Source: Candidatus Levyibacteriota bacterium
GTDB taxonomy: Bacteria > Patescibacteriota > Microgenomatia > Levybacterales > GWA1-39-11
DNA: 64,000 nt
NCBI GenBank assembly: GCA_036788695.1
Contig: DAIQMY010000002.1
Span: 2,394-66,393 of the forward strand
Reading direction: 5' to 3'
Part shown: positions 9,024 to 64,000 of the stretch, piece after piece
How positions within the stretch are numbered: position 1 is the first letter of the stretch
How the letters are laid out: every line of letters begins with the position of its first letter
Translations under genes and position numbers: made by a program
The notes under the pieces: model-generated
What the model was told of the DNA's origin: nothing
Database searches by the model: none
What the model saw: only the letters and a program-made list of their open reading frames with translations

Positions 9024-10718
9024 ATGCATACATTTATAGAAAAAAAAAGATATATTTTGCTTACTGTAATTTTTATTATTGGGCTATTTCTTCGTTTTTT
9101 TCTTCTTGGAACTAACCCTCCAAGTTTAAATTGGGATGAAGCATCAACGGGATACAACGCTTTTTCAATCTTAAAAACTGGAAAAGATGAATATGGAAAC
9201 TTTATGCCATTATCCATAAGGTCATTTGATGATTACAAGCCACCGCTTTATACGTATTTAGATGTGCCTTTTGTGGGGATATTTGGATTAACAGACTTTG
9301 CAGTAAGACTTCCCTCCGCGATACTAGGTACACTCACAATACTTGTGATTTATTTTCTTGTCCTGGAATTGTTTCCAAAGATACGAAAGACGCAGGAAGC
9401 GTTTTCTGAAAGTAATTTTCAGCAAGAAATAGCTCTTCTATCCGCATTCTTTTTTGCTGTTAGTCCATGGAGTTTGCAATTTTCTCGCTCCGCGTATGAA
9501 GGGAATATTGGATTATTTTTCTTACTCTCGGGTGTTTTATTTTTTCTTAAATCTGAAAAGAAACATATATATTTACTTTTTTCATCTATCTTATTTATTT
9601 GCGCCCTATATTCATATCATAGTTTTAGATTAGTAGTTCCATTATTAATTTTAGTAATGTCTACTCTTTTTTATCCTTATTTACTGAAAGCAAAAAAAAT
9701 GGCCATTGTCGCGTTTATGATTCTTGTATTATTTGCAATCCCTATTTATTCAAGCTTTGTAACAGCAGGAAGTGGAACTGGGAGCAGGCTCTCAATGGTT
9801 ACCATTTTTGGTGCATCTGAAAATTTAGACGCGTCAATTCGGGAGCTAGAGTATGACAGAAGTTACGGAGATTTTATTGGTGAGACATTTCACAATAGAC
9901 GCGTGGTACATTTTTTAGCTGCTGTAAAAGGGTACCTGGATCATTATAATCCTGATTTTTTATACCTGAATGGTGATGGGGGTAGGCAGCATCATGCGGT
10001 CAAATTCGGAATGATGTATCTTTTTGATTTGCCATTAATTATGGTGGGCGCAGTCATGCTTACTCGGAGAATTACACGACAGAAAATTTTATTTTTTACG
10101 ATCTTAGTGCTTGCTCCCTTGCCTTCTGCTATTACTACAGGAACTCCTCATCCGGTTCGTGCAATTGCAATGTTACCCGAACTATTAATACTTGCAAGTG
10201 TGGGAGCCGTATTTCTCATTTCGGAAATATCAAGAATAAAATACAGGGTATTAGGTCTAAAATTGAAATACGTGATATTCTCACTTCTGCTATTCGTATT
10301 TTCAGTTAATGGATTATATTATTTGCATCAATATTATATTCATACACCTATTGAGTATGGGGACTTCTGGCAATATGGATATAAAGAAGCGCTTGCAATT
10401 GCCGTAAAAAACGAAAAAAATTACGACAACATAGTATTTACCTATAAATACGATCAGCCATATATATATTATCTTTATTACAACAAAATAGACCCTAATT
10501 GGTACCATAGCAATTGGAATTTTACAAAAAATGGAGAAATGCCAAGGTTTGAGCGCAGAATAGGAAAATATATATTTAAAAATATTAATTTAGGTGAAGA
10601 AAGAAAAATAAAAAATTCGTTACTTTTTGGAACTCCAGATGAAATACCAGAAAATGAGTCATTCAAGGAAATTAAATTTCTAAATGGTGATACCGCATTC
10701 AGAATAACAAAAACATGA
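9024..10718 (+). CDS. PMT_2/GT39-like GT-C glycosyltransferase (F2)
   Basis: 'LNWDEASTGYNAFSILKTGKDEYGNFMPL'. ATG 9024 is preceded by GAGG at 9012-9015. The ORF track gives TTG 9009. Confidence 0.7.
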   Translation: MHTFIEKKRYILLTVIFIIGLFLRFFLLGTNPPSLNWDEASTGYNAFSILKTGKDEYGNFMPLSIRSFDDYKPPLYTYLDVPFVGIFGLTDFAVRLPSAILGTLTILVIYFLVLELFPKIRKTQEAFSESNFQQEIALLSAFFFAVSPWSLQFSRSAYEGNIGLFFLLSGVLFFLKSEKKHIYLLFSSILFICALYSYHSFRLVVPLLILVMSTLFYPYLLKAKKMAIVAFMILVLFAIPIYSSFVTAGSGTGSRLSMVTIFGASENLDASIRELEYDRSYGDFIGETFHNRRVVHFLAAVKGYLDHYNPDFLYLNGDGGRQHHAVKFGMMYLFDLPLIMVGAVMLTRRITRQKILFFTILVLAPLPSAITTGTPHPVRAIAMLPELLILASVGAVFLISEISRIKYRVLGLKLKYVIFSLLLFVFSVNGLYYLHQYYIHTPIEYGDFWQYGYKEALAIAVKNEKNYDNIVFTYKYDQPYIYYLYYNKIDPNWYHSNWNFTKNGEMPRFERRIGKYIFKNINLGEERKIKNSLLFGTPDEIPENESFKEIKFLNGDTAFRITKT

Positions 10719-12346
10719 AAAAATTTATTGCTCGGCACTCAACTCTTTTTTTTCTCATCGGAGGATTTTTTATTTGTCTCTCTATTACTCTCCCATATTT
10801 TCATAACGGATATTTCCCGACACATGACGGTGAGTGGGCGGTGGTACGAGCAAGCGAGATGTTCAGGGAGATACGAGACTATCAATTTCCTCCCAGATAT
10901 AGTGGTGTTTTGAATTCAGGTTATGGATATCCGCTTTTTAACTTTGCGTATCCATTCCCGTATTATATTACAACCATTATACACGCAGCTCATTTTGGAT
11001 TTGTAGATAGTGTAAAAATAATTTTTGTATCAAGCGTATTTATCTCTTTTATTGGAATGTTTTTTTTGTCTCGCGTATTTTGGAAAAGTTCACTAGCAGG
11101 CTTTTTAAGCGGAATTTTCTATATCCTGCTTCCTTATCATCTAGTTGACCTCTATGTGAGAGGCTCAATAGGTGAGTCAATTGCATTTGCTCTCTATCCC
11201 CTTATTTTACTCAGTTGTCTGGGGATTTTATATAAGAAATATATGAACGTGTCTTATTTTTCGCTCAGTATTTTGTCAGGAGCATTAATATTGAATCATA
11301 ATATTTCTGCGGTATATTTTGGATTAATATTCGCGTTTTACCTGATAGCACTTTTTTTGGCAAAGCGGTACAAAGAGGCAGTAACAACTTTTACTGGGTT
11401 TGCATGGGGTGTTCTTATATCAGCATTTTTCTTTGTTCCAGCACTATTAGAAAAGAAGTATATTAAGCTTTCAAAAATTCCAATTGCTGATAGAAATTTA
11501 TACTTTGTTACCTTGCAAAAGCTGTTAGTTCCAACATGGGGATACGGAGCCCCAATTGATGCAAACCCATTTACATACCAGATAGGTATCCCACAGCTTG
11601 TAGGTTTCTTTTCATCAATTTTTATCGTAAAAAAATTGAGAGCTGTTGAACAATTTATTATATATTCATTTATTTTTTTAACTGTTGTTCTTTCTTTCAT
11701 GATGTTTTCATTTACGTCCTTTATGTGGAGATTGCCTCTTCTTTCAGATATTAATTATCCTTGGACACTGCTTTTGCCGATAGGTTTTCTTGTATCTTTT
11801 TTATCGGGATCGCTTATTTATGTGAAATATAAAAAAATTATAGTTCCAACTTTACTATTGGCAGTAATATTTTTATATGGTTTTTACGCAAGACCTAGTG
11901 GATACATAAATAAAGGGGATTTGTATTACCTTACAAACCATGCAACAACAACCTCATCAAACGAGCTGATGCCATTATGGGTGAAAGATGAACCTGTGAA
12001 TATGTTTAAACAAAAAATTGAGGGGAAGGGTGAAGTTTCCTCATTAACATATAACTCCAAACGAATTGAATTTCTATTTACCTCAGACATATCGCAGAGA
12101 ATAGTTGTAAATCAGATTTATTATCCAGGATGGAGTGCAACAGTTAATGACCGTAGGGTAAAAATTTACTATAATAATAAAAACGGCTTAATCAATTTTG
12201 AAGTGCCTAAAGGTAAAAGCAAAGTCAGGCTGTCTTTTTCAGAAATACCCTTACGACGCGCCATGAATATTACATCTCTTGCGGCATTTGTTCTCTTATT
12301 TTTAGTATTTGCCATTGTAGAATTAAGGAAGCGCATTAAAAAATAA
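10715..12346 (+). CDS. GT-C-type membrane protein, PTPS-related (PF10131-like) family (paralog G1 of 4)
   Basis: 'FPTHDGEWAVVRASE...FPPRYSGVLNSGYGYPLFNF...DLYVRGSIGES'. The C-terminal module 'YYPGWSATVNDRRV' plus a final TM helix matches the YfhO paralogs. Confidence 0.55.
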   Translation: MKKFIARHSTLFFLIGGFFICLSITLPYFHNGYFPTHDGEWAVVRASEMFREIRDYQFPPRYSGVLNSGYGYPLFNFAYPFPYYITTIIHAAHFGFVDSVKIIFVSSVFISFIGMFFLSRVFWKSSLAGFLSGIFYILLPYHLVDLYVRGSIGESIAFALYPLILLSCLGILYKKYMNVSYFSLSILSGALILNHNISAVYFGLIFAFYLIALFLAKRYKEAVTTFTGFAWGVLISAFFFVPALLEKKYIKLSKIPIADRNLYFVTLQKLLVPTWGYGAPIDANPFTYQIGIPQLVGFFSSIFIVKKLRAVEQFIIYSFIFLTVVLSFMMFSFTSFMWRLPLLSDINYPWTLLLPIGFLVSFLSGSLIYVKYKKIIVPTLLLAVIFLYGFYARPSGYINKGDLYYLTNHATTTSSNELMPLWVKDEPVNMFKQKIEGKGEVSSLTYNSKRIEFLFTSDISQRIVVNQIYYPGWSATVNDRRVKIYYNNKNGLINFEVPKGKSKVRLSFSEIPLRRAMNITSLAAFVLLFLVFAIVELRKRIKK

Positions 12347-37945: not shown

Positions 37946-39437
37946 TATAAAGAAATATATTAAAAAAAATAAACTACAGCTGGCGATTTTATGTGTAATT
38001 ATTATATGCGCTCTATACTTACGTATGGGTGGAGTGCTTACAAAATCTTTCGCTTATACATATGATGTTGGTCGCGATCTTATTCAGGTTCAAAAAATAG
38101 TAGGAGAGCACAAGATACCCCTTATAGGTCAAACCACTGGTTTAGGCGGATTATACTATGGACCCTGGTGGTACTATATTCTTACTCCTCCATTTGTAAT
38201 TTCTCAGGGTAACCCTCAAGGGATTGTGTTTTTCATGGTGCTAACTGGAATTGCGACTATTATTTGTGGATATATATATGGAAGAAAGGTTTCAGGTAAG
38301 TGGCTTGGAATAATAATAGCTGCAATCTTAGGTCTATCGAGTGCTATGGTTGGGCTATCAAGTCAGATATGGAATCCAAATATTGCACCCCTTGTATTGC
38401 TGATTCTTTTTCTTGTTCTTCCTCTCACAAGACAAGAAAAAAATAGTATTTTTAAAAAAATATGGATAGGTATATTATTGGGATTGTTGTTGGATGCTGA
38501 GATAGTATTTGGAGTTTTGATAATTGCGTCAGTTATCATATTTCTTTTATTAATAGAGAAAAAAAGATTTTTTACTTTTCCGTCAATGGGTCTTGTCATA
38601 GGCCTTTTTGTGATGGTATTGCCGCGTATTGTATTTGAGCTAAGACATGATTTTATTATGACAAAATCGCTTTTAATAAAACACAGTGGCGATCAGAGGA
38701 TATTTGAACCATTTCAATTCTTTGAGGTGGTACCTGATAGATATATTACTTTTTTAAATCAATTTTCTGACACATTTGGCGTGAATAACACTATGAGTGT
38801 TTTAATACTAATAGTTTGTTTTCTCACGTTGTTTTTACTCAGAAAAACTATCCAAAAAAAGGAAAAAGGAGTAATTGTATTGTGTGTGGTTACTATCACA
38901 ACATTTTTTCTTGGAAGTGCAGTTTTTGCACGAGCAGTCTGGGGACACTATTTGGTAGCGTTACCGGTAGTGTATATTATTTTTGTATCGCTCTCATTTT
39001 ACATACTTGCAAGAAAGCACATGATTATAGGTATTTGTATAATAATATTGCTTTGTCTTTCTTCAGTGAGGTTACCTGGAATAATTGACAGTATAAAAAA
39101 TCCGTATTGGGAAGGAAATGCAGCTGTTTATAGAAATCAAGAAGCTGTCATTGACTTTATATATAAAGATGCGAATAATAGACCATTTAATTATATTGCA
39201 TATACTCCAGTAGTACATGATTTTACCTATCAATATTTATTCTCATGGTATGGAATGAAAACCTATGGATATACTCCACGTCAAAAAAGAGCGGATCTAT
39301 TCTATGTTATTATTGAACCTGATTTTGGGAATGAATATCGGATTACTGATTGGCTTAAAATTCGAGAAAAAGATGGGAAAATTTTAGATGAAAAGGTTAT
39401 AAAGGGCGGAATTAAGGTGCAGATGCGAAATCACTAG
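37938..39437 (+). CDS. Polytopic membrane protein, unassigned GT-C-like family M (M1 of 3)
   Basis: 'YDVGRDLIQVQKIVGEHKIPLIGQTTGLGGLYYGPWWYY'. It shares D-x-G-(R/L)-(D/F)...G-P-x-WYY with 39434..41029 and 41757..43238. Confidence 0.45.
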   Translation: MNNIKKYIKKNKLQLAILCVIIICALYLRMGGVLTKSFAYTYDVGRDLIQVQKIVGEHKIPLIGQTTGLGGLYYGPWWYYILTPPFVISQGNPQGIVFFMVLTGIATIICGYIYGRKVSGKWLGIIIAAILGLSSAMVGLSSQIWNPNIAPLVLLILFLVLPLTRQEKNSIFKKIWIGILLGLLLDAEIVFGVLIIASVIIFLLLIEKKRFFTFPSMGLVIGLFVMVLPRIVFELRHDFIMTKSLLIKHSGDQRIFEPFQFFEVVPDRYITFLNQFSDTFGVNNTMSVLILIVCFLTLFLLRKTIQKKEKGVIVLCVVTITTFFLGSAVFARAVWGHYLVALPVVYIIFVSLSFYILARKHMIIGICIIILLCLSSVRLPGIIDSIKNPYWEGNAAVYRNQEAVIDFIYKDANNRPFNYIAYTPVVHDFTYQYLFSWYGMKTYGYTPRQKRADLFYVIIEPDFGNEYRITDWLKIREKDGKILDEKVIKGGIKVQMRNH

Positions 39438-41029
39438 AATATTTTCAGTCGTTCAAGTATAAAGGTATCCAGTGAGAATGATGACGTTAATTTTTGATTT
39501 TTTGTCCATCGCGTAATAAGATCATCATATACGTCCTGAGGATTCACTCTTGTCCAGTTATCTTTGTTTAGTTGTCCTCTATGTTTTCCAAGATCAACAA
39601 TAGTATGACCAAAAAAAGTTCCAACTACCACTTTTTTATCAATAGATGCAGATGTATTTCCGATTATACCAATTGGGTAACCCTCAGTCTTTGCTTTTCC
39701 AGAAGCATGTAAATAGAGTGATAGCGCATAGGTGTCCCCAGAGGTTTTCCACTTGTAGTCATAAAGCGCAAATTTTTTATTTGGGTATTTTTGCATCAGG
39801 AGTATGGATGCAGATTTGACCTCATCATTTAAAAGATTTGTTCCAAAGATAAATTGTCTGGCGTTTACAAGATCAAAAAAAAGTATAAATGAAAAGACTA
39901 CAAAAAAGAAAAATGTTGCAATATGCCTATGCTCACGGCTACGAAAAATTTTATTCGTTGTATATGAAATAAAGATAGATAGCTGTAAGAGTGTCCATCC
40001 AGTTATTAAGAAAATAAATGGTGCAGTGTATATAAGATACCCCTCAAACCGTTCTCCACGGTAGTATCGAATTATTATGAGAAAAATTCCCAAGATAATA
40101 CCTGTTAAAAATATTTCCAATGGAATTTTTTTTGTTATTGTCCTATATATAAATGTTATTCCTGAAAGCGCCATTAGAATAATCGCTATTGGCTTATTTC
40201 CTCCAACCACATTTGACCAGTAATCAGGAAGCGAATAATAGAGATAAATCTTCCAACTATTTGCAACATAGATTCTGTATTGACCAATAAGCATGTAATC
40301 TAATAGATTTCTTAGGTTTGCGAAATCCTGGTGTGAGTCCCAATAGAGAAGCGGTAGTGTGGGAATAATAAAACCCAGTACTCCGAAGCCGAAAGCAAGC
40401 AATTTATGATAGAGAGACGTTTTAGGAATTAGAAGAAGGGCTGCTAAAAATAAAAGGAGATTAAGTGCTTGATAATGCATTGAGATAGCAATCCCAACGC
40501 TTAAACCCATAAGAAAAGCGTACCTAATCCGCTTTTTTTGTATATAGAGGATAAAAAAGAGAAGAAGAAGGGTGCAGGATACTCCGACAAATCCGTGTTG
40601 ACTTAAGAAAGTTGATCGAGCAATAAATTGAGGGGAAAAAGCAACAAGGAAACCTAAAACAATTGACATTTTTTTTCCTCCTACCAAATATCCTATATAC
40701 GTCATTGCCATAACTACTAATATTCCAATCATGCATGTTATTATCCACGGTGCCTCGAAGGTGAAAGGAGCAAGGAGGTAAGTGCTCATGTTATACCAAT
40801 AAAAAAGTGGACCAAAGACAAAAGGTCCTGCAGATGAGAATGAAGCAAAAAGGGGAAGTTCACCACGATCCAATGCTACAAGTGCAATCATTGCGTCTCT
40901 TCCGCTATCACCGCCAGTTCCTATTCTTTCTTGAAAGTTATAGGTGCGGAAAATAATTGCGAATATAAGGATTATAAGAATTCCCAGGAAATATCCATGA
41001 GTTGATAGAAATTTTTTTACTCCTTCCAT
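39434..41029 (-). CDS. Polytopic membrane protein, family M paralog (M2), on the opposite strand
   Basis: 'GGDSGRDAMIALVALDRGELPLFASFSSAGPFVFGPLFYWY'. It is convergent with M1, and the two stop codons overlap in CTAG at 39434-39437. Confidence 0.45.
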   Translation of the reverse strand: MEGVKKFLSTHGYFLGILIILIFAIIFRTYNFQERIGTGGDSGRDAMIALVALDRGELPLFASFSSAGPFVFGPLFYWYNMSTYLLAPFTFEAPWIITCMIGILVVMAMTYIGYLVGGKKMSIVLGFLVAFSPQFIARSTFLSQHGFVGVSCTLLLLFFILYIQKKRIRYAFLMGLSVGIAISMHYQALNLLLFLAALLLIPKTSLYHKLLAFGFGVLGFIIPTLPLLYWDSHQDFANLRNLLDYMLIGQYRIYVANSWKIYLYYSLPDYWSNVVGGNKPIAIILMALSGITFIYRTITKKIPLEIFLTGIILGIFLIIIRYYRGERFEGYLIYTAPFIFLITGWTLLQLSIFISYTTNKIFRSREHRHIATFFFFVVFSFILFFDLVNARQFIFGTNLLNDEVKSASILLMQKYPNKKFALYDYKWKTSGDTYALSLYLHASGKAKTEGYPIGIIGNTSASIDKKVVVGTFFGHTIVDLGKHRGQLNKDNWTRVNPQDVYDDLITRWTKNQKLTSSFSLDTFILERLKIF

Positions 41030-44035: not shown

Positions 44036-45010
44036 ATGAAAATAGTAGTAGCTGGAGGTGGAGGATACATTGGGAGCTTTATGGTAAAAGCTCTTTGTGA
44101 TCGTGGGGATTCAGTATTTGTGATCGATAATTTCTTGAAGGGGTATCCCGAGGCAGTTGACAAGCATGCGAAAATCATTGAGGGAAACTTAATGGATGAA
44201 GCATTTGTATCAGAGGCAATAAAAAGCATAGGAGAGATTGACGTTGTATTAAATTTCGCGGGCTTAATTGAAGTTGGGCAGTCAGTAAAAGAACCTGGTC
44301 TTTATTTCAATACAAATATTCAAATAGCATTGAATTTACTTGAGAGTATAAAAAATACAAAGACTAAATTTATATTTTCATCAACAGCTGCTGTATATGG
44401 TACTCCTGAAACTGTACCAATCCCTGAAAATCATACAAAAAACCCCACAAATCCATACGGTGAGAGTAAACTCATGATTGAAAAGATTTTATATTGGTAT
44501 AACAAGACATATGGACTATCCTTTACCGCATTACGATATTTTAACGCTTCAGGTGCAGCGCTAGATGGCAGTATGGGCGAGAGGCATAATCCGGAAACGC
44601 ATATTATTCCAGTAGCAATAAACGCGCTTTTAAAAAAAACTCCTTTTCATCTGTATGGTGAGGATTACAAAACAAAAGACGGAACCTGTTTACGAGACTA
44701 TATTCATGTTTTAGATTTAATTCAGGCTCATCTGCTTTCCATTGATACCATCAACGATACGTCTTCTCGGACATATAATGTCGGAGTCGGGAAGGGTTAT
44801 ACAAACCGTGAAATTATTAATACAATTGAGAAGATAAGTGGTGAAAAACTGGAAGTTATTGTCTCGGATCGCAGACCTGGAGACCCAGATGAATTAATAG
44901 CAGACCCGTCAAAAATAATGAGTGAATTGGGGTTTGAGCCAAAATATTCAGATTTAGAAACAATAATAAAATCTGCTTATGCCTGGCATGTTAATCTGCA
45001 GGGTAAATGA
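44036..45010 (+). CDS. galE: UDP-glucose 4-epimerase
   Basis: 'MKIVVAGGGGYIGSF', 'YGESKLMIE' (YxxxK) and 'DGTCLRDYIHVLDL' are all GalE hallmarks. Confidence 0.85.
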   Translation: MKIVVAGGGGYIGSFMVKALCDRGDSVFVIDNFLKGYPEAVDKHAKIIEGNLMDEAFVSEAIKSIGEIDVVLNFAGLIEVGQSVKEPGLYFNTNIQIALNLLESIKNTKTKFIFSSTAAVYGTPETVPIPENHTKNPTNPYGESKLMIEKILYWYNKTYGLSFTALRYFNASGAALDGSMGERHNPETHIIPVAINALLKKTPFHLYGEDYKTKDGTCLRDYIHVLDLIQAHLLSIDTINDTSSRTYNVGVGKGYTNREIINTIEKISGEKLEVIVSDRRPGDPDELIADPSKIMSELGFEPKYSDLETIIKSAYAWHVNLQGK

Positions 45011-57092: not shown

Positions 57093-58037
57093 ATGAAAAA
57101 GCGCAATTTTTGGAATAAAAAAAAGGTTTTAATTACTGGTTCCGGAGGATTTGTAGGAACCCATTTAAAAGAAAAGTTGAGGAAGCTAGGAGCTGATGTA
57201 TATGGTGTATCAAGATCCTCTAGTGACAAGCATGATTACAAAGAGAATATTACTAATCTGTCTGCGGTTGAGGGAATCATCAAAAAGAATCGTATTCAAA
57301 TCTGCTATCATTTAGCAGCTGAGGCATTAGTAGAATCAGGTCAAAGTGATCCATATAACACTTTTAAAAATAATATTACTGGTGCGTTAAATGTTCTTGA
57401 ATGCTCAAGAAAATATAATCTTGAAAAAATTATAATCGCATCCACGTCACATGTATACGGAGATCATAAACCACCATATCTTGAAAGATTTTCTCCTAGG
57501 CCGTCAAGACCATACGAAACTTCAAAAACATGTATTGATTTAATTGCACAGAGCTATGCAAATACATTTTCTCTTCCTGTTATAATACCGCGTTTTGTAA
57601 ACACATATGGTCCTGGAGATACTAATTTTAATCGTCTTATACCTAAGACAATCAAAAGCATTTTAGAAAATAAACCCCCGCTTATGTGGGGTGGAAAAGC
57701 AAGACGAGACTATTTATATATTGATGATGTTATTTCAGCGTATACATTGTTGGGAGAGACAAAAATGGAAAAATTTGGGAAAAACAGAATATATAATTTT
57801 GGAAGTAATAATATATATTCTGTCCAAGAGATAATTGAAATTTTGATTAAGATGTCAGGAAAAGACTTGGAAATTGTGAGAAAAAAAGATGAAAGGGATT
57901 TTGAGATAAAAATTCAGTTCTCTTCTTTTAAAAAAGCAAATAGAATATTGGGTTGGAGTCCAAAATTTTCTATAGACCGGGGCCTATTGCTTACAATTCC
58001 ATGGTACAAGAAAAACCTTAATAAGATCATAAAATAA
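57093..58037 (+). CDS. NDP-hexose 4,6-dehydratase-like SDR, closest to the CDP-glucose 4,6-dehydratase (RfbG/DdhB) family
   Basis: The N-terminus 'RNFWNKKKVLITGSGGFVG' resembles DdhB 'NSFWQGKRVFVTGHTGFKG'. It also carries 'HLAAEALVESGQSDPYNTFKNNITGALNVLE' and the catalytic 'YETSK'. Confidence 0.55.
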   Translation: MKKRNFWNKKKVLITGSGGFVGTHLKEKLRKLGADVYGVSRSSSDKHDYKENITNLSAVEGIIKKNRIQICYHLAAEALVESGQSDPYNTFKNNITGALNVLECSRKYNLEKIIIASTSHVYGDHKPPYLERFSPRPSRPYETSKTCIDLIAQSYANTFSLPVIIPRFVNTYGPGDTNFNRLIPKTIKSILENKPPLMWGGKARRDYLYIDDVISAYTLLGETKMEKFGKNRIYNFGSNNIYSVQEIIEILIKMSGKDLEIVRKKDERDFEIKIQFSSFKKANRILGWSPKFSIDRGLLLTIPWYKKNLNKIIK

Positions 58038-58059: not shown

Positions 58060-58707
58060 ATGAATAATCAAAAAAAAATAGATAGAGGCATAGTTATTAT
58101 TGGAGGTTCTTCCGGTGCGTTGATAGCTGAAGAAATTTTTGAGAGTCAATACGAAAGAATCTTTTTTCTTGAAACGTACTCAAAATCAGTTGTGAAAAGT
58201 AGAATTATTGCAGATACGATTACGAAAGGATTAGACTATTTAAAGAAAAGAGATGTAGAGTATTTTATCGCGACGGGTGATAATAAAAAACGCCAAGAAA
58301 ATTTTCAATTAATTTACAAGCATATTAAGAAGTACCCGGTTAATTGTATTCATGAAAGTGCATATGTCTCAAAAAGCAGCAGTATAGGTTATGGCAATCT
58401 CATTTGTCCTAAAAGCGTAATTCATACAAACGCGTCGATTGGAAATAATACAATTATAAACACCGCTTCCGTTATTGAGCACGATGTTATTGTTTCTGAC
58501 TATGCTCAAATATCTCCAAATGCGACACTCGCAGGAAGGGTAGTTGTGGGAAGGGGTGCATTTCTAGGAGTTGGGAGTGTCGTTATCCCAGATATTAAGA
58601 TAGGAGAATGGGGAGTAATTGCTGCAGGAGCTGCAGTTATAAGCAGCACAAAGAGGAACGCATTATATGCAGGTGTTCCTGCGGTTTATAAAAAAGATTT
58701 AAAATGA
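58060..58707 (+). CDS. Sugar N-acetyltransferase, NeuD/PglD family (left-handed beta-helix)
   Basis: N-terminal Rossmann-like 'IVIIGGSSGALIAEEI' followed by hexapeptide repeats 'IGNNTIINTASVIEHDVIVSDYAQISPNATLAGRVVVGRGAFLGVGSVV'. Confidence 0.75.
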   Translation: MNNQKKIDRGIVIIGGSSGALIAEEIFESQYERIFFLETYSKSVVKSRIIADTITKGLDYLKKRDVEYFIATGDNKKRQENFQLIYKHIKKYPVNCIHESAYVSKSSSIGYGNLICPKSVIHTNASIGNNTIINTASVIEHDVIVSDYAQISPNATLAGRVVVGRGAFLGVGSVVIPDIKIGEWGVIAAGAAVISSTKRNALYAGVPAVYKKDLK

Positions 58708-59843
58708 AAATTCCAATATTTAAACTTGAGTTTGAAAAAGAATTTATTTCAAAATACCTGAGGGGATGTGAGGAGATTTTAACTTCAAACAGACCACTTG
58801 GTGAAGACAAGTATGTTTCTGAATTTGAGCAGAAATTTGCAAAGCTTGTAGGGGCTAAATATGCCTTGGCTACAACAAACGGGACAAGTGCCCTAGAGCT
58901 TGCCTTAAGATGCGTAGATGTAAAGGGCAAGACGGTAATTATTCCTACGAACACGTTTAGCGCTACATCTATCGCGGTATCAAATGCGGGCGGATCATTT
59001 TCTCTTCTTGATATTGAAGAAAATTATTTTTCTTTTTTGCCTGCAGTTTTAGAAAAAGAAATTCTTCGTTTAAAAAAGAAAAAAGAAAAAATTGGAGCAG
59101 TAATTGTTGTTCATATTGGTGGGATTATTACAACAAATATTGCAGGGATAGTATCTGTATGTAGAAAACACAAAGTCCCTCTTATTGAGGATGCGGCACA
59201 TGCACATCTATCACAATATAAAAATTTTAAAGCAGGAACAATAGGTGTTTTTGGCTGCTTTAGTTTTTTCCCAACAAAAGTTATGACAACGGGAGAAGGA
59301 GGAATGATTACGACTAATAGTAAAAAAATGTTTTCACATGCAAAGTCTCTTAAAAATTTTGGCAGAGACAGTAATAACATAGACCTCATAATAAATGAGA
59401 AAGGTGATAATTTTAAAATGAATGAGGTAACTGCACTTTTGGGTTCACTAGAGTGTGATAGGGTATTTAAAAGGGTAGAAAAAAGAAATATGTTAACGGA
59501 TATGTATGTAAACCTTTTGAGAGGATCTTCTTATATTCCTGTTTTGCAAGATGCTGGTCTTTCTTCACAATACAAAATGATACTAAAAACAAAAATAAAA
59601 CAAGAGAAGCTTAAGCCGTTTTGTAAAGCAAATGGAATTTCACTTACTGGTGAAGTTTATAAAATACCTATACATCAGCAGCCTATATACAAAAAATTAT
59701 TCAAACACCAAAAATTTCCAAATTCAGATAGAATTTCTCAGTATCACATATGTCCACCATTGTATCCTGAGCTTACTGTTGCAGAGGTAAAGTATATCTG
59801 CAAAACGTTAATACGTGCAGAAAAAGCGTTTTTAAAAAAATGA
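58704..59843 (+). CDS. DegT/DnrJ/EryC1/StrS-family PLP-dependent sugar aminotransferase
   Basis: 'ALATTNGTSALELAL' and 'FSFFPTKVMTTGEGGMITTN' with the PLP-binding Lys. There is an ATGA overlap. Confidence 0.85.
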   Translation: MKIPIFKLEFEKEFISKYLRGCEEILTSNRPLGEDKYVSEFEQKFAKLVGAKYALATTNGTSALELALRCVDVKGKTVIIPTNTFSATSIAVSNAGGSFSLLDIEENYFSFLPAVLEKEILRLKKKKEKIGAVIVVHIGGIITTNIAGIVSVCRKHKVPLIEDAAHAHLSQYKNFKAGTIGVFGCFSFFPTKVMTTGEGGMITTNSKKMFSHAKSLKNFGRDSNNIDLIINEKGDNFKMNEVTALLGSLECDRVFKRVEKRNMLTDMYVNLLRGSSYIPVLQDAGLSSQYKMILKTKIKQEKLKPFCKANGISLTGEVYKIPIHQQPIYKKLFKHQKFPNSDRISQYHICPPLYPELTVAEVKYICKTLIRAEKAFLKK

Positions 59844-60865
59844 AAAACAAAATAGTAAAATTAGAAAAAGTAGGTAAGATTAAAATCTATGAAGAAGATA
59901 TGCCTTCTCTTAAAGAAGGTGAGGTGTTGGTGGAGATTAAAGCCGTAGGAATTTGTGGTTCTGACATGCATTATTTTTTGCACGGTGGTTTAGGAAGCTT
60001 TAAGCAAAAAATGCCTATGGAAATGGGACATGAAGCAGCGGGAATAGTTATTGATTCATTTGATAAGAATATATTTAAGAAAGGAGATCGTGTTGCAATT
60101 GAACCAGGAAAACCATGTCTTGTCTGCGAATGGTGCTTAAAGGGGAAACACAATTTGTGCAAAAACGGAACATTCATGGGAGCAAATGCTAAAGGAGCAC
60201 TTGCGACATATGTGATTGTTCATCAAATTCAACTAGAAAAAATGCCTAAGAGTATGTCATTCGAAGTTGGTGCTCTTATGGAGCCGTTAGGAGTAGGTCT
60301 CCACGCAGTAAATTTGGTAAATCCTAAAAGTACAAAAAATGCAGCAATTATAGGTGCTGGTCCAATTGGTCTTTCAGTACTTTTTATCTTAAAGAAAATG
60401 GGATTTTCTCAGATATATATGGTAGATAAATTGCCATATCGTGTAAAATTTGCAAAGAAAATGGGAGCAACTAAAACGTTTCTTTTTAAAGAAGCTTTGC
60501 AAAAAATAAAAAATATAACAAATGGAGATGGAACAACATACGTATTTGATACAGGCGGAGCGCAAGATTCAGTAAATTTATGTGTTGACATAGTTAAAAC
60601 ATCAGGAACAATTGCACTTGTAGGCATTCCAGATGTTGATTTTATAAATTACAATCCACACAAGTTACGAACAAAGGAAGTAACTATCAAAAATATAAGA
60701 AGGTCAAATCAAACACTAGGGGACTGTGTAAAAATGTTCTCAAATGATAAAAACTTAGAAAAACTGATAACACATACGTTTAGATTTGAAAAAGCACAAA
60801 ACGCATTTAATTTAGTGAGCAAGTACAAGGGGAAAGTTATAAAATGTGTCGTTGTTAGAGGATAG
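59840..60865 (+). CDS. Zn-dependent medium-chain dehydrogenase (threonine/sorbitol dehydrogenase-like)
   Basis: 'AVGICGSDMHYF', 'GHEAAGIV' and the 'CLVCEWCLKGKHNLC' structural-Zn Cys cluster, plus the Rossmann 'IIGAGPIGL'. Confidence 0.8.
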   Translation: MKNKIVKLEKVGKIKIYEEDMPSLKEGEVLVEIKAVGICGSDMHYFLHGGLGSFKQKMPMEMGHEAAGIVIDSFDKNIFKKGDRVAIEPGKPCLVCEWCLKGKHNLCKNGTFMGANAKGALATYVIVHQIQLEKMPKSMSFEVGALMEPLGVGLHAVNLVNPKSTKNAAIIGAGPIGLSVLFILKKMGFSQIYMVDKLPYRVKFAKKMGATKTFLFKEALQKIKNITNGDGTTYVFDTGGAQDSVNLCVDIVKTSGTIALVGIPDVDFINYNPHKLRTKEVTIKNIRRSNQTLGDCVKMFSNDKNLEKLITHTFRFEKAQNAFNLVSKYKGKVIKCVVVRG

Positions 60866-60886
60866 TAGGGATACTAGATCTTTGTA

Positions 60887-61897
60887 TTGAAGAAATATCC
60901 TAATACTGCTAATATTACTTCTATGAAAAAGTCAGTTGCAAAAAAAGCATTAGTTCTTGGAGCGGGTGGATTTATTGGATCTCATTTGGTTCATTTATTA
61001 AAGAAGAAAGGATACTTTGTTCGAGGTGTTGATTTGAAGTACCCAGAGTTTAGCAAAACAGTTGCTGATGATTTTGTGGTAGGCGACTTGCGAGACATAA
61101 ACTTTATGAGGAAAGTATTTGGTAAGTTTGATGAGGTATATCAGTTGGCTGCAGATATGGGGGGTGCAGGATACATATTTACTGGAAAGAATGATGCTGC
61201 AATAATGCGTAATTCTGCACAGATAAATTTAAATGCCCTTGAGTTAATGGTTGAAACCAAAGCAAAAAAGATTTTCTATTCATCTTCTGCATGTATTTAT
61301 CCTGAATACAACCAAAAAAGCCCTATTGATCCAAAAACCTCTGAAGATTCAGCTTATCCCGCTGCCCCAGATAGTGAATACGGATGGGAGAAACTATTTA
61401 GTGAAAGGATGTTTCTTGCGTATCACAGAAATTATGGTATTAAAGTTAGAATTGCAAGATTCCACAATATATTTGGCCCTGAAGGGGTATGGAGAGGTGG
61501 TAAGGAAAAGTCCCCAGCTGCAATTTGCAGGAAAGTAGCAGAAACTCCAAATGGGGGTACGATCGAAATATGGGGAGACGGAAAACAAACGCGATCTTTT
61601 CTTTACATAGACGAGTGTTTAAAGGGGATTCGTCGGCTGATGGATAGTAATTTTGTAGGACCGGTAAATATAGGTTCTGAGGAGATGATTTCCATAAATG
61701 ATCTTGCTCTGATGGTTATGGGGATTGCAGGGAAGAAGTTGAAGATGAAACATATAAAAGGCCCCCTGGGCGTAAGAGGTCGAAAGTCAGACAATGAATT
61801 AATCCGCAAAAAGTTAAGATGGGAACCTTCTATGCCTCTAAAGGATGGGATAGTTAAAACATATGCATGGATTTCAACACAAGTAAATAAAAAATAG
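60887..61897 (+). CDS. gme: GDP-mannose 3,5-epimerase (GME) homolog
   Basis: Blocks match plant GME closely by eye: 'LAADMGGAGYI', 'SSSACIYPEY', 'SAYPAAPDSEYGWEKL', 'RIARFHNIFGPEGVWRGGKEKSPAAICRK', 'IWGDGKQTRSFLYIDEC', 'PVNIGSEEMISIN' and 'GVRGRKSDNELIRKKLRWEP'. The start may be ATG 60923. Confidence 0.85.
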   Translation: MKKYPNTANITSMKKSVAKKALVLGAGGFIGSHLVHLLKKKGYFVRGVDLKYPEFSKTVADDFVVGDLRDINFMRKVFGKFDEVYQLAADMGGAGYIFTGKNDAAIMRNSAQINLNALELMVETKAKKIFYSSSACIYPEYNQKSPIDPKTSEDSAYPAAPDSEYGWEKLFSERMFLAYHRNYGIKVRIARFHNIFGPEGVWRGGKEKSPAAICRKVAETPNGGTIEIWGDGKQTRSFLYIDECLKGIRRLMDSNFVGPVNIGSEEMISINDLALMVMGIAGKKLKMKHIKGPLGVRGRKSDNELIRKKLRWEPSMPLKDGIVKTYAWISTQVNKK

Positions 61898-62829
61898 TGA
61901 TTAAAGCAATTGTTACCACAACTATAAACCCTCCCAGTGAAGCTCTTAAACTTTTTTCCGAAAAAAAAGATTGGAGTTTAATTATCATAGGAGACAAAAT
62001 TACCCCACACAATCTTTTTAGGAATTTTGAAAAAAAATGCAAGAATGTGCGATATTTATCTCCTGAAGATCAAGATAAAAAATATCCAAAACTGAGTAAG
62101 GCAATTGGATGGAGGAAGATACAGAGAAGAAACATTGGGTATTTAGAGGCGTATGAGATGAAGGCAGATGTTATTGCGACAGTAGATGACGATAATATTC
62201 CTTTGTTGGATTGGGGTAAAAATCTTTTTTTAGATAAAGAAGTTTTAGTAAATTATTACAAGACACGTCTGAGTTCATTTGATCCGGTTGGAGTAACTAA
62301 TTATCCGAACCTATGGCATAGAGGCTACCCCCTCCAGTTAATAACAAAAAGGGACTATTCAAATAAAATAAAAAAACATATAAAAGCAGCTATTCAGGCA
62401 GATTTCTGGAATGGTGATCCAGATATTGATGCTGTTTGCAGGTTAACTTTTGCACCTGATTGTCTGTTTCAGAATAAATATTTCCCTATATCTTCCAACA
62501 AAATTTCACCCTTTAACTCTCAAAACACATTTCTCACTAGGGAGGTTTTAAAGCACTATTTTCTGTACCCAGATATTGGAAGAATGGATGATATTTGGGC
62601 ATCTTTTTATGTTCAGTCATTAGGTTTTAAAATAGTGTATGGTAAGCCAAGTGTTACGCAGTTAAGAAACATTCACGATCTTACAAAGGATATGAGAGCC
62701 GAGTATATTGGGTATGAAAAGAATCAAGAGCTGGTAGAAGCGTTATCAAAAAACCCTGATGCGATATATGACTATCTTCCAAAGAGTGCAATAAATGCGT
62801 TTAAAATCTATTTACGGTATTTTAAGTGA
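61897..62829 (+). CDS. Putative GT-A-like glycosyltransferase with a DDD motif (RGP/GT75- or DUF288-like); uncertain
   Basis: 'IVTTTINPPSE' and 'VIATVDDDNIPLLDW' resemble the 'IFTIDDDCFV' of reversibly glycosylated polypeptide / UDP-arabinopyranose mutase and DUF288 proteins. The GTG start overlaps the GME stop by 1 nt. Confidence 0.35.
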   Translation: MIKAIVTTTINPPSEALKLFSEKKDWSLIIIGDKITPHNLFRNFEKKCKNVRYLSPEDQDKKYPKLSKAIGWRKIQRRNIGYLEAYEMKADVIATVDDDNIPLLDWGKNLFLDKEVLVNYYKTRLSSFDPVGVTNYPNLWHRGYPLQLITKRDYSNKIKKHIKAAIQADFWNGDPDIDAVCRLTFAPDCLFQNKYFPISSNKISPFNSQNTFLTREVLKHYFLYPDIGRMDDIWASFYVQSLGFKIVYGKPSVTQLRNIHDLTKDMRAEYIGYEKNQELVEALSKNPDAIYDYLPKSAINAFKIYLRYFK

Positions 62830-62835
62830 AAACTC

Positions 62836-63546
62836 ATGAGGAAACAGAAAATTCTAGAAATAGGGTGTGGTCAGGGATTTAATACTTATATATTATCAAA
62901 AAATAAACTAAACACGGTGACTGGAATTGATTTGTCAACTGTGGATATTAAAATAGCAAGACAAAGATATCCGGGGATAGATTTTAAAAAGATGAATGCT
63001 GAAAGACTTGTATTTAAAAGAGATGCATTTGACGTTGTGATAGCGCTGCAAATTCTTGAGCATGTAGACAATTTAGATAAAGTCTTAGATGAAATTGTGC
63101 GTGTATTGAAATTTAAAGGTAGATTGGTGGCTAGTATTCCCTTTTATACATCAGAGAAGTGGCTTCTTCGCGTGAGGCCAACTTACTTTAAAGAAATTCA
63201 TCATGTCAGAATTTTTAAAAAAAATGAGCTAGAGAGAATTTGTCAATATAAAGGGTTAGCTCTAGTCAAAAAGAAAAGAGTAGGATTTTTACAGCACATA
63301 GAATTATACCTGTTGTTTAAGCGAAAAATTAACTCAAACAATCAGACAAGTATTGGAAGTTGGAGAGATACATTCTGGACTAAGACAGTTCACGCGATAA
63401 TGCTTTTTTTTGATCCTATTTGCTTGCAGACCCCACTGAAGTATTTTCCATTATGGATTATAGCAATTCCATTCGGGTTTATGATAAATTTTGCAGGCAA
63501 TATATTTTTTCCTAAGTCACTTGATTATGAATTCATTAAAAAATAA
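62836..63546 (+). CDS. Class I SAM-dependent methyltransferase
   Basis: 'ILEIGCGQGFNTYIL' (motif I) and 'FDVVIALQILEHVDN'. Confidence 0.7.
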   Translation: MRKQKILEIGCGQGFNTYILSKNKLNTVTGIDLSTVDIKIARQRYPGIDFKKMNAERLVFKRDAFDVVIALQILEHVDNLDKVLDEIVRVLKFKGRLVASIPFYTSEKWLLRVRPTYFKEIHHVRIFKKNELERICQYKGLALVKKKRVGFLQHIELYLLFKRKINSNNQTSIGSWRDTFWTKTVHAIMLFFDPICLQTPLKYFPLWIIAIPFGFMINFAGNIFFPKSLDYEFIKK

Positions 63547-64000
63547 GAACAGAGTATCCGTTGTGATTGTAAATTGGAATGGAAGGAAATGGCTTAAGAA
63601 ATGTCTTAGTTCGCTTTCAAATCAGTCATATAAAAATGTGGAGATTTTAATTGTTGATAACGCCTCTTCTGATGATTCTGTAGGCTATATGAGAAAGTAT
63701 TTTCCAGATGTAAAAATTATACAAAATAAAGCAAATCTGGGTTACCCAAAAGCAGTAAATATTGGGATAAGAAAAAGTAGCGGTGAGTATTTATTATTAA
63801 TTAATAACGATGCATGGGTAGATAAAAAATTTATTGAGAATTTATTTAATTTTTATAATAGCAATTCTTATTCAGTTATTTCTCCTATCTCAAGAAGATA
63901 TAACGGGAAAGCAGCAGGTAATATGTTACCAAGTATTGATCCCACAGGGACGCCTGCATATTTTTTCCCAATAACAAAAAGAAATAAATTATTTTTCTTA
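63527..64000 (+). CDS. GT2 glycosyltransferase, 3'-truncated at the window end
   Basis: It is not in the ORF track because it has no stop in the window. The ATG at 63527 reads 'MNSLKNKNRVSVVIVNWNGRKWLKKCLSSLSNQSYKNVEILIVDNASSDDS...LLLINNDAW'. It overlaps the upstream gene by 20 nt. Confidence 0.7.
   Translation, partial: MNSLKNKNRVSVVIVNWNGRKWLKKCLSSLSNQSYKNVEILIVDNASSDDSVGYMRKYFPDVKIIQNKANLGYPKAVNIGIRKSSGEYLLLINNDAWVDKKFIENLFNFYNSNSYSVISPISRRYNGKAAGNMLPSIDPTGTPAYFFPITKRNKLFFL

Follow-up and report, generated by a model that had tools for sequence, protein, structure and literature searches.

At positions 60887–61897, the 64,000-nucleotide stretch of a Candidatus Levyibacteriota bacterium analysed here (contig DAIQMY010000002.1; hereafter the window) harbours an open reading frame (ORF) that very probably encodes a genuine GDP-mannose 3,5-epimerase (GME). 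The gene is coupled to a neighbour (61897–62829) resembling the GT75-type mutases of nucleoside diphosphate (NDP)-sugars and, on balance, we favour the view that both act in the biosynthesis of a surface glycan, with the neighbour converting GDP-L-galactopyranose (GDP-L-Galp) to GDP-L-galactofuranose (GDP-L-Galf). On its own, the GME gene is an ordinary member of an already known family; what is new is its coupling to a member of a GT75-like clade that is unannotated, spans many phyla and has a changed metal site, in a surface-glycan locus of Levybacteria, which are placed in the Microgenomates group of the Patescibacteria/Candidate Phyla Radiation (CPR).

The GME ORF runs uninterrupted over 336 codons on the plus strand, from a TTG at 60887 to the stop codon TAG at 61895–61897, and contains all six motifs quoted for it by the initial annotation, i.e. 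LGAGGFIGSH, QLAADMGG, SSSACIYPE, RFHNIFGPEGVWRGGKEKSPAAICRK, WGDGKQTRSFLYIDEC and GVRGRKSDN. The true start is probably the ATG at 60923 (Met13 of the 336-aa ORF), giving a protein of 324 aa, since an identical NCBI protein (P0001, 324 aa, from a Candidatus Levybacteria metagenome-assembled genome, MAG) and the homologues (320–330 aa) begin there. The identical protein stems from a 491-kb contig (ENA ERZ794922 NODE_1; locus L165, with L and P numbers denoting loci and proteins of our collection).

The assignment of this ORF to GME by the initial annotation is supported. In a phmmer search against the PDB, the list was headed by the four GME entries of Arabidopsis together with another GME, with E-values from 4e-92 to 9e-90 and alignments spanning almost the whole protein (A. 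thaliana GME, AtGME, entry 2c59: 4e-92 over residues 20–335), whereas the next enzyme class, UDP-glucuronate decarboxylase, followed at 2e-28 and GDP-fucose synthase at ~4e-19, which puts the characterised GMEs clearly ahead of other NDP-sugar short-chain dehydrogenases/reductases (SDRs). The identity to AtGME is 48.7% over 312 columns, and the eight defining residues of AtGME, i.e. S143, C145, Y174, K178, N203, K217, R243 and R306, are all kept. The Rossmann fold of an extended SDR is indicated by the glycine motif GAGGFIGSH, by S134/Y165/K169 (336-aa numbering), which correspond to S143/Y174/K178, and by the match to Pfam Epimerase PF01370 (1.4e-43); C136 and K208 align with the catalytic acid/base residues Cys145 and Lys217, and R299, R236 and N194 with Arg306 (Cys-acidifying), Arg243 (diphosphate-binding) and Asn203. 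In its extended SDR type, glycine motif, S/Y/K triad and all of these aligned residues, the protein resembles both AtGME and the bacterial MfGM35E (EC 5.1.3.18).

GDP-fucose synthase (GMER) has the Cys in common with GME, while the base is Lys in GME and His in GMER, and the Cys-acidifying residue Arg and Lys, respectively (PMC8787198); at both positions the window protein has the residue of GME. An identity as GMER or as the UDP-glucose 4-epimerase GalE was therefore rejected, given the Lys instead of His as base, the presence of Arg306 and an E-value gap of 60 orders. Likewise, neither ordinary epimerases as top hits nor an absence of the Cys/Lys residues, which the initial annotation had named as grounds for giving up its assignment, were encountered. 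The best NCBIfam match of the ORF is Fcl, with 93 bits against a cutoff of 500; NCBIfam contains no GME model, which is why the public label ‘NAD-dependent epimerase/dehydratase’ is generic. The protein differs from plant GME in its CPR (Levyibacteriota) host, in termini that are ~50 residues shorter and in the absence of an ascorbate context, and an ascorbate-type role was rejected, since every neighbour in the window is a glycan-assembly gene.

GME had initially been considered rare in bacteria, a view that is outdated. The only characterised bacterial GME, MfGM35E from Methylacidiphilum fumariolicum, was described in 2019, is 50.5% identical to AtGME and, like the window gene, lies beside glycosyltransferase and methyltransferase genes (PMC6678494); the window GME is thus as near to AtGME as the proven bacterial enzyme. 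Among the matches listed from a large protein collection, the best 120 proteins were 70–82% identical to the window GME, many of them carrying the JGI name GDP-D-mannose 3',5'-epimerase. For two GME-specific peptides, at least 600 matches were listed in metagenome contigs, of which at least 597 were confirmed as GME loci. With hundreds of relatives at 65–80% identity, GME is therefore not rare in environmental prokaryotes.

The stop codon of the GME gene overlaps the GTG start of its neighbour by 1 nt (TAGTG), an arrangement shared by the nearest relative, L161, whose mutase-like protein is 88% identical, and both genes are predicted to be translationally coupled. This neighbour had initially been taken for a GT-A-like glycosyltransferase with a DDD motif; the motif is present, but rather than a generic GT-A enzyme the protein is a divergent relative of MtdL. 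MtdL, a GT75 GDP-L-galactopyranose mutase that serves in A201A biosynthesis, is the sole enzyme known to contract the ring of GDP-L-galactose; it and Hyg20, both belonging to antibiotic biosynthesis, are the two bacterial GT75 enzymes that have been characterised. By means of an Arg nucleophile and an Asp base MtdL opens the pyranose of GDP-L-Gal or GDP-L-Fuc and re-closes it as a furanose, and the pyranose–furanose interconversion of plant GT75 enzymes is likewise cofactor-independent and metal-dependent (PMC9937993).

While no Pfam or NCBIfam family reached its threshold for the neighbour, the PDB entries of MtdL (7xpr, 7xps, 7xpt, 7xpu, 8hl8 and 7yua; deposited as ‘Transglycosylse’) matched its residues 4–294 with E=2.8e-19. 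With a profile of the family the E-value was 6.7e-25, MtdL being the sole PDB relative. An AlphaFold (AF2) model built with 25 homologues reached a mean predicted local distance difference test score (pLDDT) of 93.6 and a predicted template modelling score (pTM) of 0.92, and Foldseek retrieved with it six MtdL structures at E ~3e-22 and template modelling (TM) scores of 0.82–0.84, followed by the ordinary GT-A transferases AvpGT and TarP at E ~2e-7 and TM scores of at most 0.48. In the model, a GT-A Rossmann-like N-terminal region is followed by the core and the helical C-terminal part that are specific to GT75.

Over 287 aligned columns, the mutase-like protein is ~31% identical to MtdL, and 16 of 20 functional residues of MtdL are identical. 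The nucleophile Arg159, the base Asp260 and Asp195 of MtdL correspond to R142, D232 and D176 of the window protein and are invariant in 85 family members, and the DXD motif together with Ser228, Gln229, Arg257, Arg289 and His292 corresponds to D97-D98-D99, S208, Q209, R229, R257 and H260, which likewise do not vary among the 85 members. Thr13 of MtdL is kept as the GDP-type Thr, again in all 85, in contrast to the Pro of UDP-using plant enzymes. The likeness to MtdL/Hyg20 (GDP-L-galactopyranose/GDP-L-fucopyranose mutases for A201A and hygromycin A) extends from fold, DDD motif, nucleophile, base and Thr13 to the pairing with GME (A201A). In contrast to MtdL, the window protein is ~65 residues shorter (310 vs 376 aa), four positions are changed (N42 to I35, S86 to K74, D87 to I75 and H287 to Q255), the gene lies in a cell-surface glycan locus instead of an actinomycete antibiotic cluster, and the protein belongs to a separate, much larger clade. 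By eye, an RGYP Arg motif, the DDD and an R-x-D-D are also shared with the plant UDP-L-arabinopyranose mutases/reversibly glycosylated polypeptides (GT75, RGP PF03214), from which the protein differs in not reaching the Pfam model and in the Thr at the position of Thr13. Of note, a 510-aa metagenome protein (P0141) is 88% identical to the mutase-like ORF over 75% of the query and carries an additional PF18998 domain; it could represent a gene fusion or an error in gene calling.

For the window clade of the mutase-like protein, seven contexts were examined (61–88% identity), and GME was linked to the mutase-like gene in six of them, if a 323-aa SDR at the GME position on the P0128 contig is counted as a putative GME. 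The GME of L161 is 81% identical to that of the window, followed by L164 (76%), L168 (70%) and L170 (69%); in L169, a GME (72%) lies 2.6 kb upstream of the mutase-like gene, within one gene run, and L167 is the only context without GME. As the other neighbours vary among these contexts, the pair behaves as a module. Besides L161, L164, L168, L169 and L170, the pair is also found in L001, L029, L042 and L076. This direct coupling to a GT75-like gene sets the window GME apart from most GMEs. As an observation in its own right, the GME of L170 (2924–3905) is called in two pieces of 243 aa and 85 aa, i.e. either an assembly-error frameshift or a pseudogene, next to an intact GT75-like gene. A precedent for the pair is provided by the antibiotic A201A, for which GME and the MtdL mutase are reported to make L-galactofuranose (PMC9937993; PMC6678494, citing Zhu et al. 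PNAS 2017); in the window, a GME and a GT75 mutase homologue are encoded together and would act in sequence.

In the proposed pathway, GME would oxidize GDP-D-mannose at C4 with the help of bound NAD and the Ser/Tyr/Lys triad; the Cys/Lys acid–base pair would next invert C5 and C3, and re-reduction of C4 would yield GDP-L-galactose and, as a side product, GDP-L-gulose. Subsequently, in line with the mechanism proposed for MtdL, the neighbour would use Arg142 as nucleophile and Asp232 as base to open the pyranose ring and close it again in the form of GDP-L-galactofuranose. While the enzyme classes are read from the sequences, we infer this furanose step from the fold, the core residues, the gene coupling and the A201A precedent, and we put it just short of an even chance. 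The L-hexose that the initial annotation had expected in the glycan would thereby be narrowed to L-galactofuranose by the MtdL-like neighbour. More speculatively, the furanose may be O-methylated by the membrane-anchored methyltransferase encoded downstream and/or transferred by the two downstream GT2 enzymes, and a polyprenyl-phosphate carrier may hand it to the many GT-C-type membrane transferases of the locus.

The mutase-like protein belongs to a large family, for which an exhaustive profile search yielded 3,414 clusters at 50% identity with E<=1e-3 and 627 at 1e-30, and a scan restricted by a sequence pattern, in which each species was represented by a single genome, found it in at least 282 species. 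Carriers include Alpha- and Gammaproteobacteria, Bacteroidia, Acidobacteria, Verrucomicrobia, Planctomycetes, Melainabacteria, Prochlorococcus, Actinomycetota and a DPANN archaeon, with Dethiosulfatarculus sandiegensis (L037) and Occallatibacter savannae (L049) as cultured representatives, and the identity is 53–60% from Prochlorococcus to Acidobacteria to the DPANN archaeon. No description of this clade was found in the literature searched. In a neighbour-joining tree, the GT75-like gene of a Candidatus Iainarchaeum MAG (DPANN; L015 10001–10918), which is 58% identical, is sister to the window CPR clade, a grouping that hints at transfer between ultra-small episymbiont lineages.

Clustering of the neighbouring genes revealed a module of three genes, i.e. 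a GT2 glycosyltransferase (~253 aa), the GT75-like protein (~305 aa) and an SDR (~327 aa; here pSDR), which occurs across at least a dozen phyla and in which all three genes are unannotated or generically annotated. The GT2 gene lies directly upstream of the mutase-like gene in ~68 of 80 genome loci; its product has Pyrococcus dolichol-phosphate-mannose synthase as sole PDB relative (7.6e-14), and its NCBIfam neighbours are AglJ and dolichyl-phosphate hexose transferase. The pSDR gene lies directly downstream, its product being conserved with 63–78% identity across phyla. Of the GME residues, the pSDR retains the redox triad (S/Y/K), R243 and R306, while C145 is replaced by Ala, N203 by Ser and K217 by Ala or Thr. 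Because these epimerization residues are replaced, pSDR cannot be a 3,5-epimerase, and its identity as GME or Fcl was rejected (best NCBIfam match Fcl, 84 bits vs a cutoff of 500).

Among 85 mutase-like loci, ten had a true GME, 46 a pSDR and four other SDRs, with none of these within 2 kb in the remaining 25. In L042, the order is GT2, mutase-like gene and GME, i.e. the GME lies exactly in the pSDR slot. The residue equivalent to MtdL S86, which bears on base selectivity, co-varies with the type of partner: it is Cys in all 46 pSDR-partnered proteins, and Lys in five, Ser in three and Cys in two of those partnered with GME. Furthermore, a ~700-aa protein with ~10 transmembrane segments at its N terminus and both a large domain and a transmembrane anchor at its C terminus, i.e. 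a GT-C-like layout, and with no Pfam match follows the mutase-like gene in L168, L169 and L170, where it is itself followed by a protein with six transmembrane segments (~350 aa), and lies 3 kb downstream in L167; in the window itself, a homologue of the ~700-aa protein is absent at E<=1e-5.

Judging from these arrangements, the nucleotide sugar used by the GT75-like enzyme may come from the SDR, and the product may be passed to a polyprenyl-phosphate carrier for extracytoplasmic transferases. Mycobacterial decaprenyl-phospho-arabinose represents such a pathway to a polyprenyl-phosphate-linked furanose donor. The likeness is one by analogy alone, i.e. the layout of a lipid-linked donor factory with a GT2 before, an SDR after and GT-C-like proteins nearby, and does not extend to homology with DprE1/DprE2 or UbiA-type enzymes. 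Extending this, one may speculate, with considerable doubt, that the GT75-fold clade, the Dol-P-Man-synthase-like GT2 and an exchangeable SDR make polyprenyl-phosphate-linked furanose donors for GT-C transferases, as a widespread functional analogue of the mycobacterial pathway; with GME in the SDR slot, the envelope glycan of Levybacteria would then contain L-galactofuranose.

In the window, the pair is the end of a block of five genes (acetyltransferase, DegT, dehydrogenase, GME and GT75-like; Table 1), which recurs at 57–70% identity in otherwise different contexts and may represent one longer pathway. The methyltransferase gene after the DDD gene had been described correctly as depending on S-adenosylmethionine (SAM), and its product is a candidate sugar O-methyltransferase. 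The O-methylation foreseen by the initial annotation is at best hinted at: a homologue of this methyltransferase is conserved in the nearest relative L161 only (82%), so that its standing as a third conserved module member is unsupported, while other methyltransferases recur near the pair. The GT2 gene at the window's edge encodes 325 aa in the source contig (L165 gene 12605–13582, PF00535) and is a candidate transferase for the product. Beyond the window, the next genes of the source contig encode a second GT2, an FdtA-type isomerase/acyltransferase, a DegT, a further GT2, a C-methyltransferase and a 763-aa protein with multiple transmembrane segments.

The glycan-assembly region as a whole exceeds 64 kb, and of 50 window ORFs with a length of 150 aa or more, 49 are on the plus strand (the exception being 39434–41029). 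It harbours ~12 genes for GT2 enzymes, of which six are short and resemble Dol-P-sugar synthases, four GT4 genes, at least 12 GT-C-like membrane proteins (PMT_2, YfhO, PTPS_related), Wzx-type flippases, a second methyltransferase and, just upstream of GME, an amino-sugar cassette reaching from the dehydratase-like SDR to the dehydrogenase (Table 1), as well as ~10 ORFs of 370–670 aa without a Pfam match; no tRNA genes or Rfam matches were found in the window. Almost all of the ORFs belong to glycan assembly, to which this small CPR genome devotes an exceptionally large part of its content.

Table 1. Coordinates of the pair, of its neighbours in the window and of related genes in other loci
Feature	Position	Strand	Evidence and remarks
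UDP-glucose 4-epimerase GalE, bona fide	44036–45010	+	TIGR01179, 364 bits vs cutoff 262; mid-locus
Dehydratase-like SDR (4,6-dehydratase-like)	57093–58037	+	Directly before the acetyltransferase and DegT genes
Sugar N-acetyltransferase, NeuD/PglD/VioB family	58060–58707	+	TIGR03570, 166.5 bits, cutoff 160.8; 58–61% in L168/L170
DegT/PseC-type sugar aminotransferase, pyridoxal phosphate-dependent	58704–59843	+	PF01041, 7e-80; 61% in L168/L170
Zn-dependent medium-chain dehydrogenase/reductase (MDR), 341 aa	59840–60865	+	ADH_N/ADH_zinc_N; threonine/idonate dehydrogenase-like, below cutoffs; 57–58% in L168/L170
GDP-mannose 3,5-epimerase (GME/GM35E) homologue	60887–61897	+	Longest ORF, TTG start, 336 aa, uninterrupted
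Divergent GT75-type (MtdL-like) putative NDP-sugar pyranose/furanose mutase	61897–62829	+	310 aa, soluble, GTG start
Class I SAM-dependent methyltransferase	62836–63546	+	Methyltransf_11, 5.6e-22; one C-terminal transmembrane helix, ~residues 203–226 (hydropathy)
GT2 glycosyltransferase, 5' part	63527–64000	+	Overlaps the methyltransferase end and leaves the window; translation MNSLKNKNRVSVVIVNWNG...DNASSDDS
Five-gene block	Window 58060–62829; L168 1201–5933; L170 60–4834; L161 4164–8933		
GT2–GT75-like–SDR module, examples	L012 9160–9921 / 10001–10903; L043; L063 and L066 (Prochlorococcus); L037; L049		
pSDR, examples	L043 10912–11892; L063 10887–11900; L056 10914–11897		~40 other loci
~700-aa protein (with six-transmembrane companion)	L168 6029–9179; L169 5945–9167; L170 5540–8667; L167 8532–10355; L165 18848–20975		

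Several observations weigh against a GDP-L-Galp mutase fed by GME. In the mutase-like protein, the second Mn2+ ligand of MtdL, His287, is replaced by Gln255, as it is by Gln in 85 of 85 family members; this His is conserved in the active AtRGP1-3 and lost in the inactive AtRGP5 (PMC9937993). Asp87 of MtdL, which lies near the C4-OH of the sugar and whose variants D87N and D87S are inactive, with plant enzymes carrying Ser (PMC9937993), is replaced by Ile75, and by Ile or Val across the family. The Pfam model RGP PF03214 did not match the window protein at E<=10 and, among 25 relatives, matched a single one at E=0.0011, i.e. below threshold, and none above it, while STELLO PF03385 was matched sub-threshold by 11 of the 25. 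As the core is invariant in 85 members and the Gln is too, the family is a distinct clade and not a decayed copy. Because two residue positions and the RGP model fail, we refer to the protein as divergent, GT75-type and mutase-like and do not file it as a proven GT75 mutase. Also on this side of the balance, no mutase-like gene was found within 10 kb of GME in any of 80 metagenome loci with 65–74% GME relatives, 47 of which had at least 1 kb on both flanks, and a general linkage of GME and GT75-like genes was rejected in view of these 0 of 80 GME loci and ~10 of 85 GT75-like loci. Furthermore, since most family members pair with a pSDR devoid of the epimerization residues, the usual substrate of the family is probably not GDP-L-Gal, and some substrate tolerance is assumed here. 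ManC and ManB, for the supply of GDP-mannose, were absent among the 50 window ORFs scanned, and GDP-mannose would therefore be supplied from elsewhere. Finally, the functions of both proteins are predictions from sequence and model, and sequence does not discriminate between L-galactose and L-gulose as the product used.

That the neighbour forms a furanose at all would be wrong if GME supplied GDP-L-Gal or GDP-L-Gul as pyranoses to an ordinary inverting GT-A enzyme, i.e. the DDD protein, for transfer of the L-hexose. We regard this as unlikely. The GT-A Rossmann-like N-terminal half and the DDD motif would fit such a transferase, as would the loss of His287 and Asp87, the unreached RGP threshold and the glycosyltransferase (arginine self-glycosylation) activity known for GT75 proteins (PMC9937993). 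However, the TM score of 0.83 to MtdL contrasts with at most 0.48 for true transferases, the Arg nucleophile, the Asp base and the sugar/phosphate-binding set are all invariant, and the cross-phylum identity of 53–60% is typical of small-molecule nucleotide-sugar enzymes and not of acceptor-specific transferases. Moreover, the neighbour is soluble, and the transfer could be carried out by the polyprenyl-phosphate GT2 that usually flanks it.

Two other readings keep the GME and change the sugar. A GME-like enzyme yielding mainly GDP-L-gulose, the C5 epimer, as proposed for BlmG (bleomycin), would bring L-gulose into the glycan, with the neighbour acting on L-gulose or on another substrate. This appears very unlikely to us: product use is not predictable from sequence, and the change of Asp87 to Ile at the C4-OH contact of MtdL is compatible with a differently configured sugar, yet the GME residues for both epimerizations are all present and the sole biochemical precedent for a GME and GT75 pair uses L-Gal (PMC9937993). 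Alternatively, GME and the GT75-like enzyme might join the MDR, the DegT and the NeuD-type acetyltransferase in a longer pathway to an acetamido-deoxy L-hexose, via WbpB/WbpE/WbpD-like oxidation, transamination and N-acetylation. The five-gene block does occur in three independent contexts (window/L161, L168 and L170), and the P0128 contig of another relative has a DegT and a GFO/IDH/MocA oxidoreductase just upstream of the pair. Against this, the dehydratase-like SDR at 57093–58037 together with the acetyltransferase and DegT genes already forms a complete, conventional amino-dideoxy-sugar cassette independent of GME, and L164 and L169 carry the GME and GT75-like genes without the block, so that we consider the longer pathway quite unlikely.

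Regarding the favoured conversion of GDP-L-Galp to GDP-L-Galf, no report of L-galactofuranose beyond the antibiotic A201A was found in the literature. If the pair makes GDP-L-Galf, this very rare sugar would move from a single natural product into the cell-envelope biology of a major uncultured lineage, and a first functional handle would be gained on a large family of ‘hypothetical proteins’ (~3,400 clusters at 50% identity in at least 282 species), whose conserved GT2–GT75-like–SDR module is present in ecologically important bacteria. To our knowledge, GT75 mutases are the only flavin-independent route to NDP-furanoses. GME and the mutase-like proteins are small, soluble and easy to assay, and such enzymes would be useful for obtaining rare NDP-furanoses.

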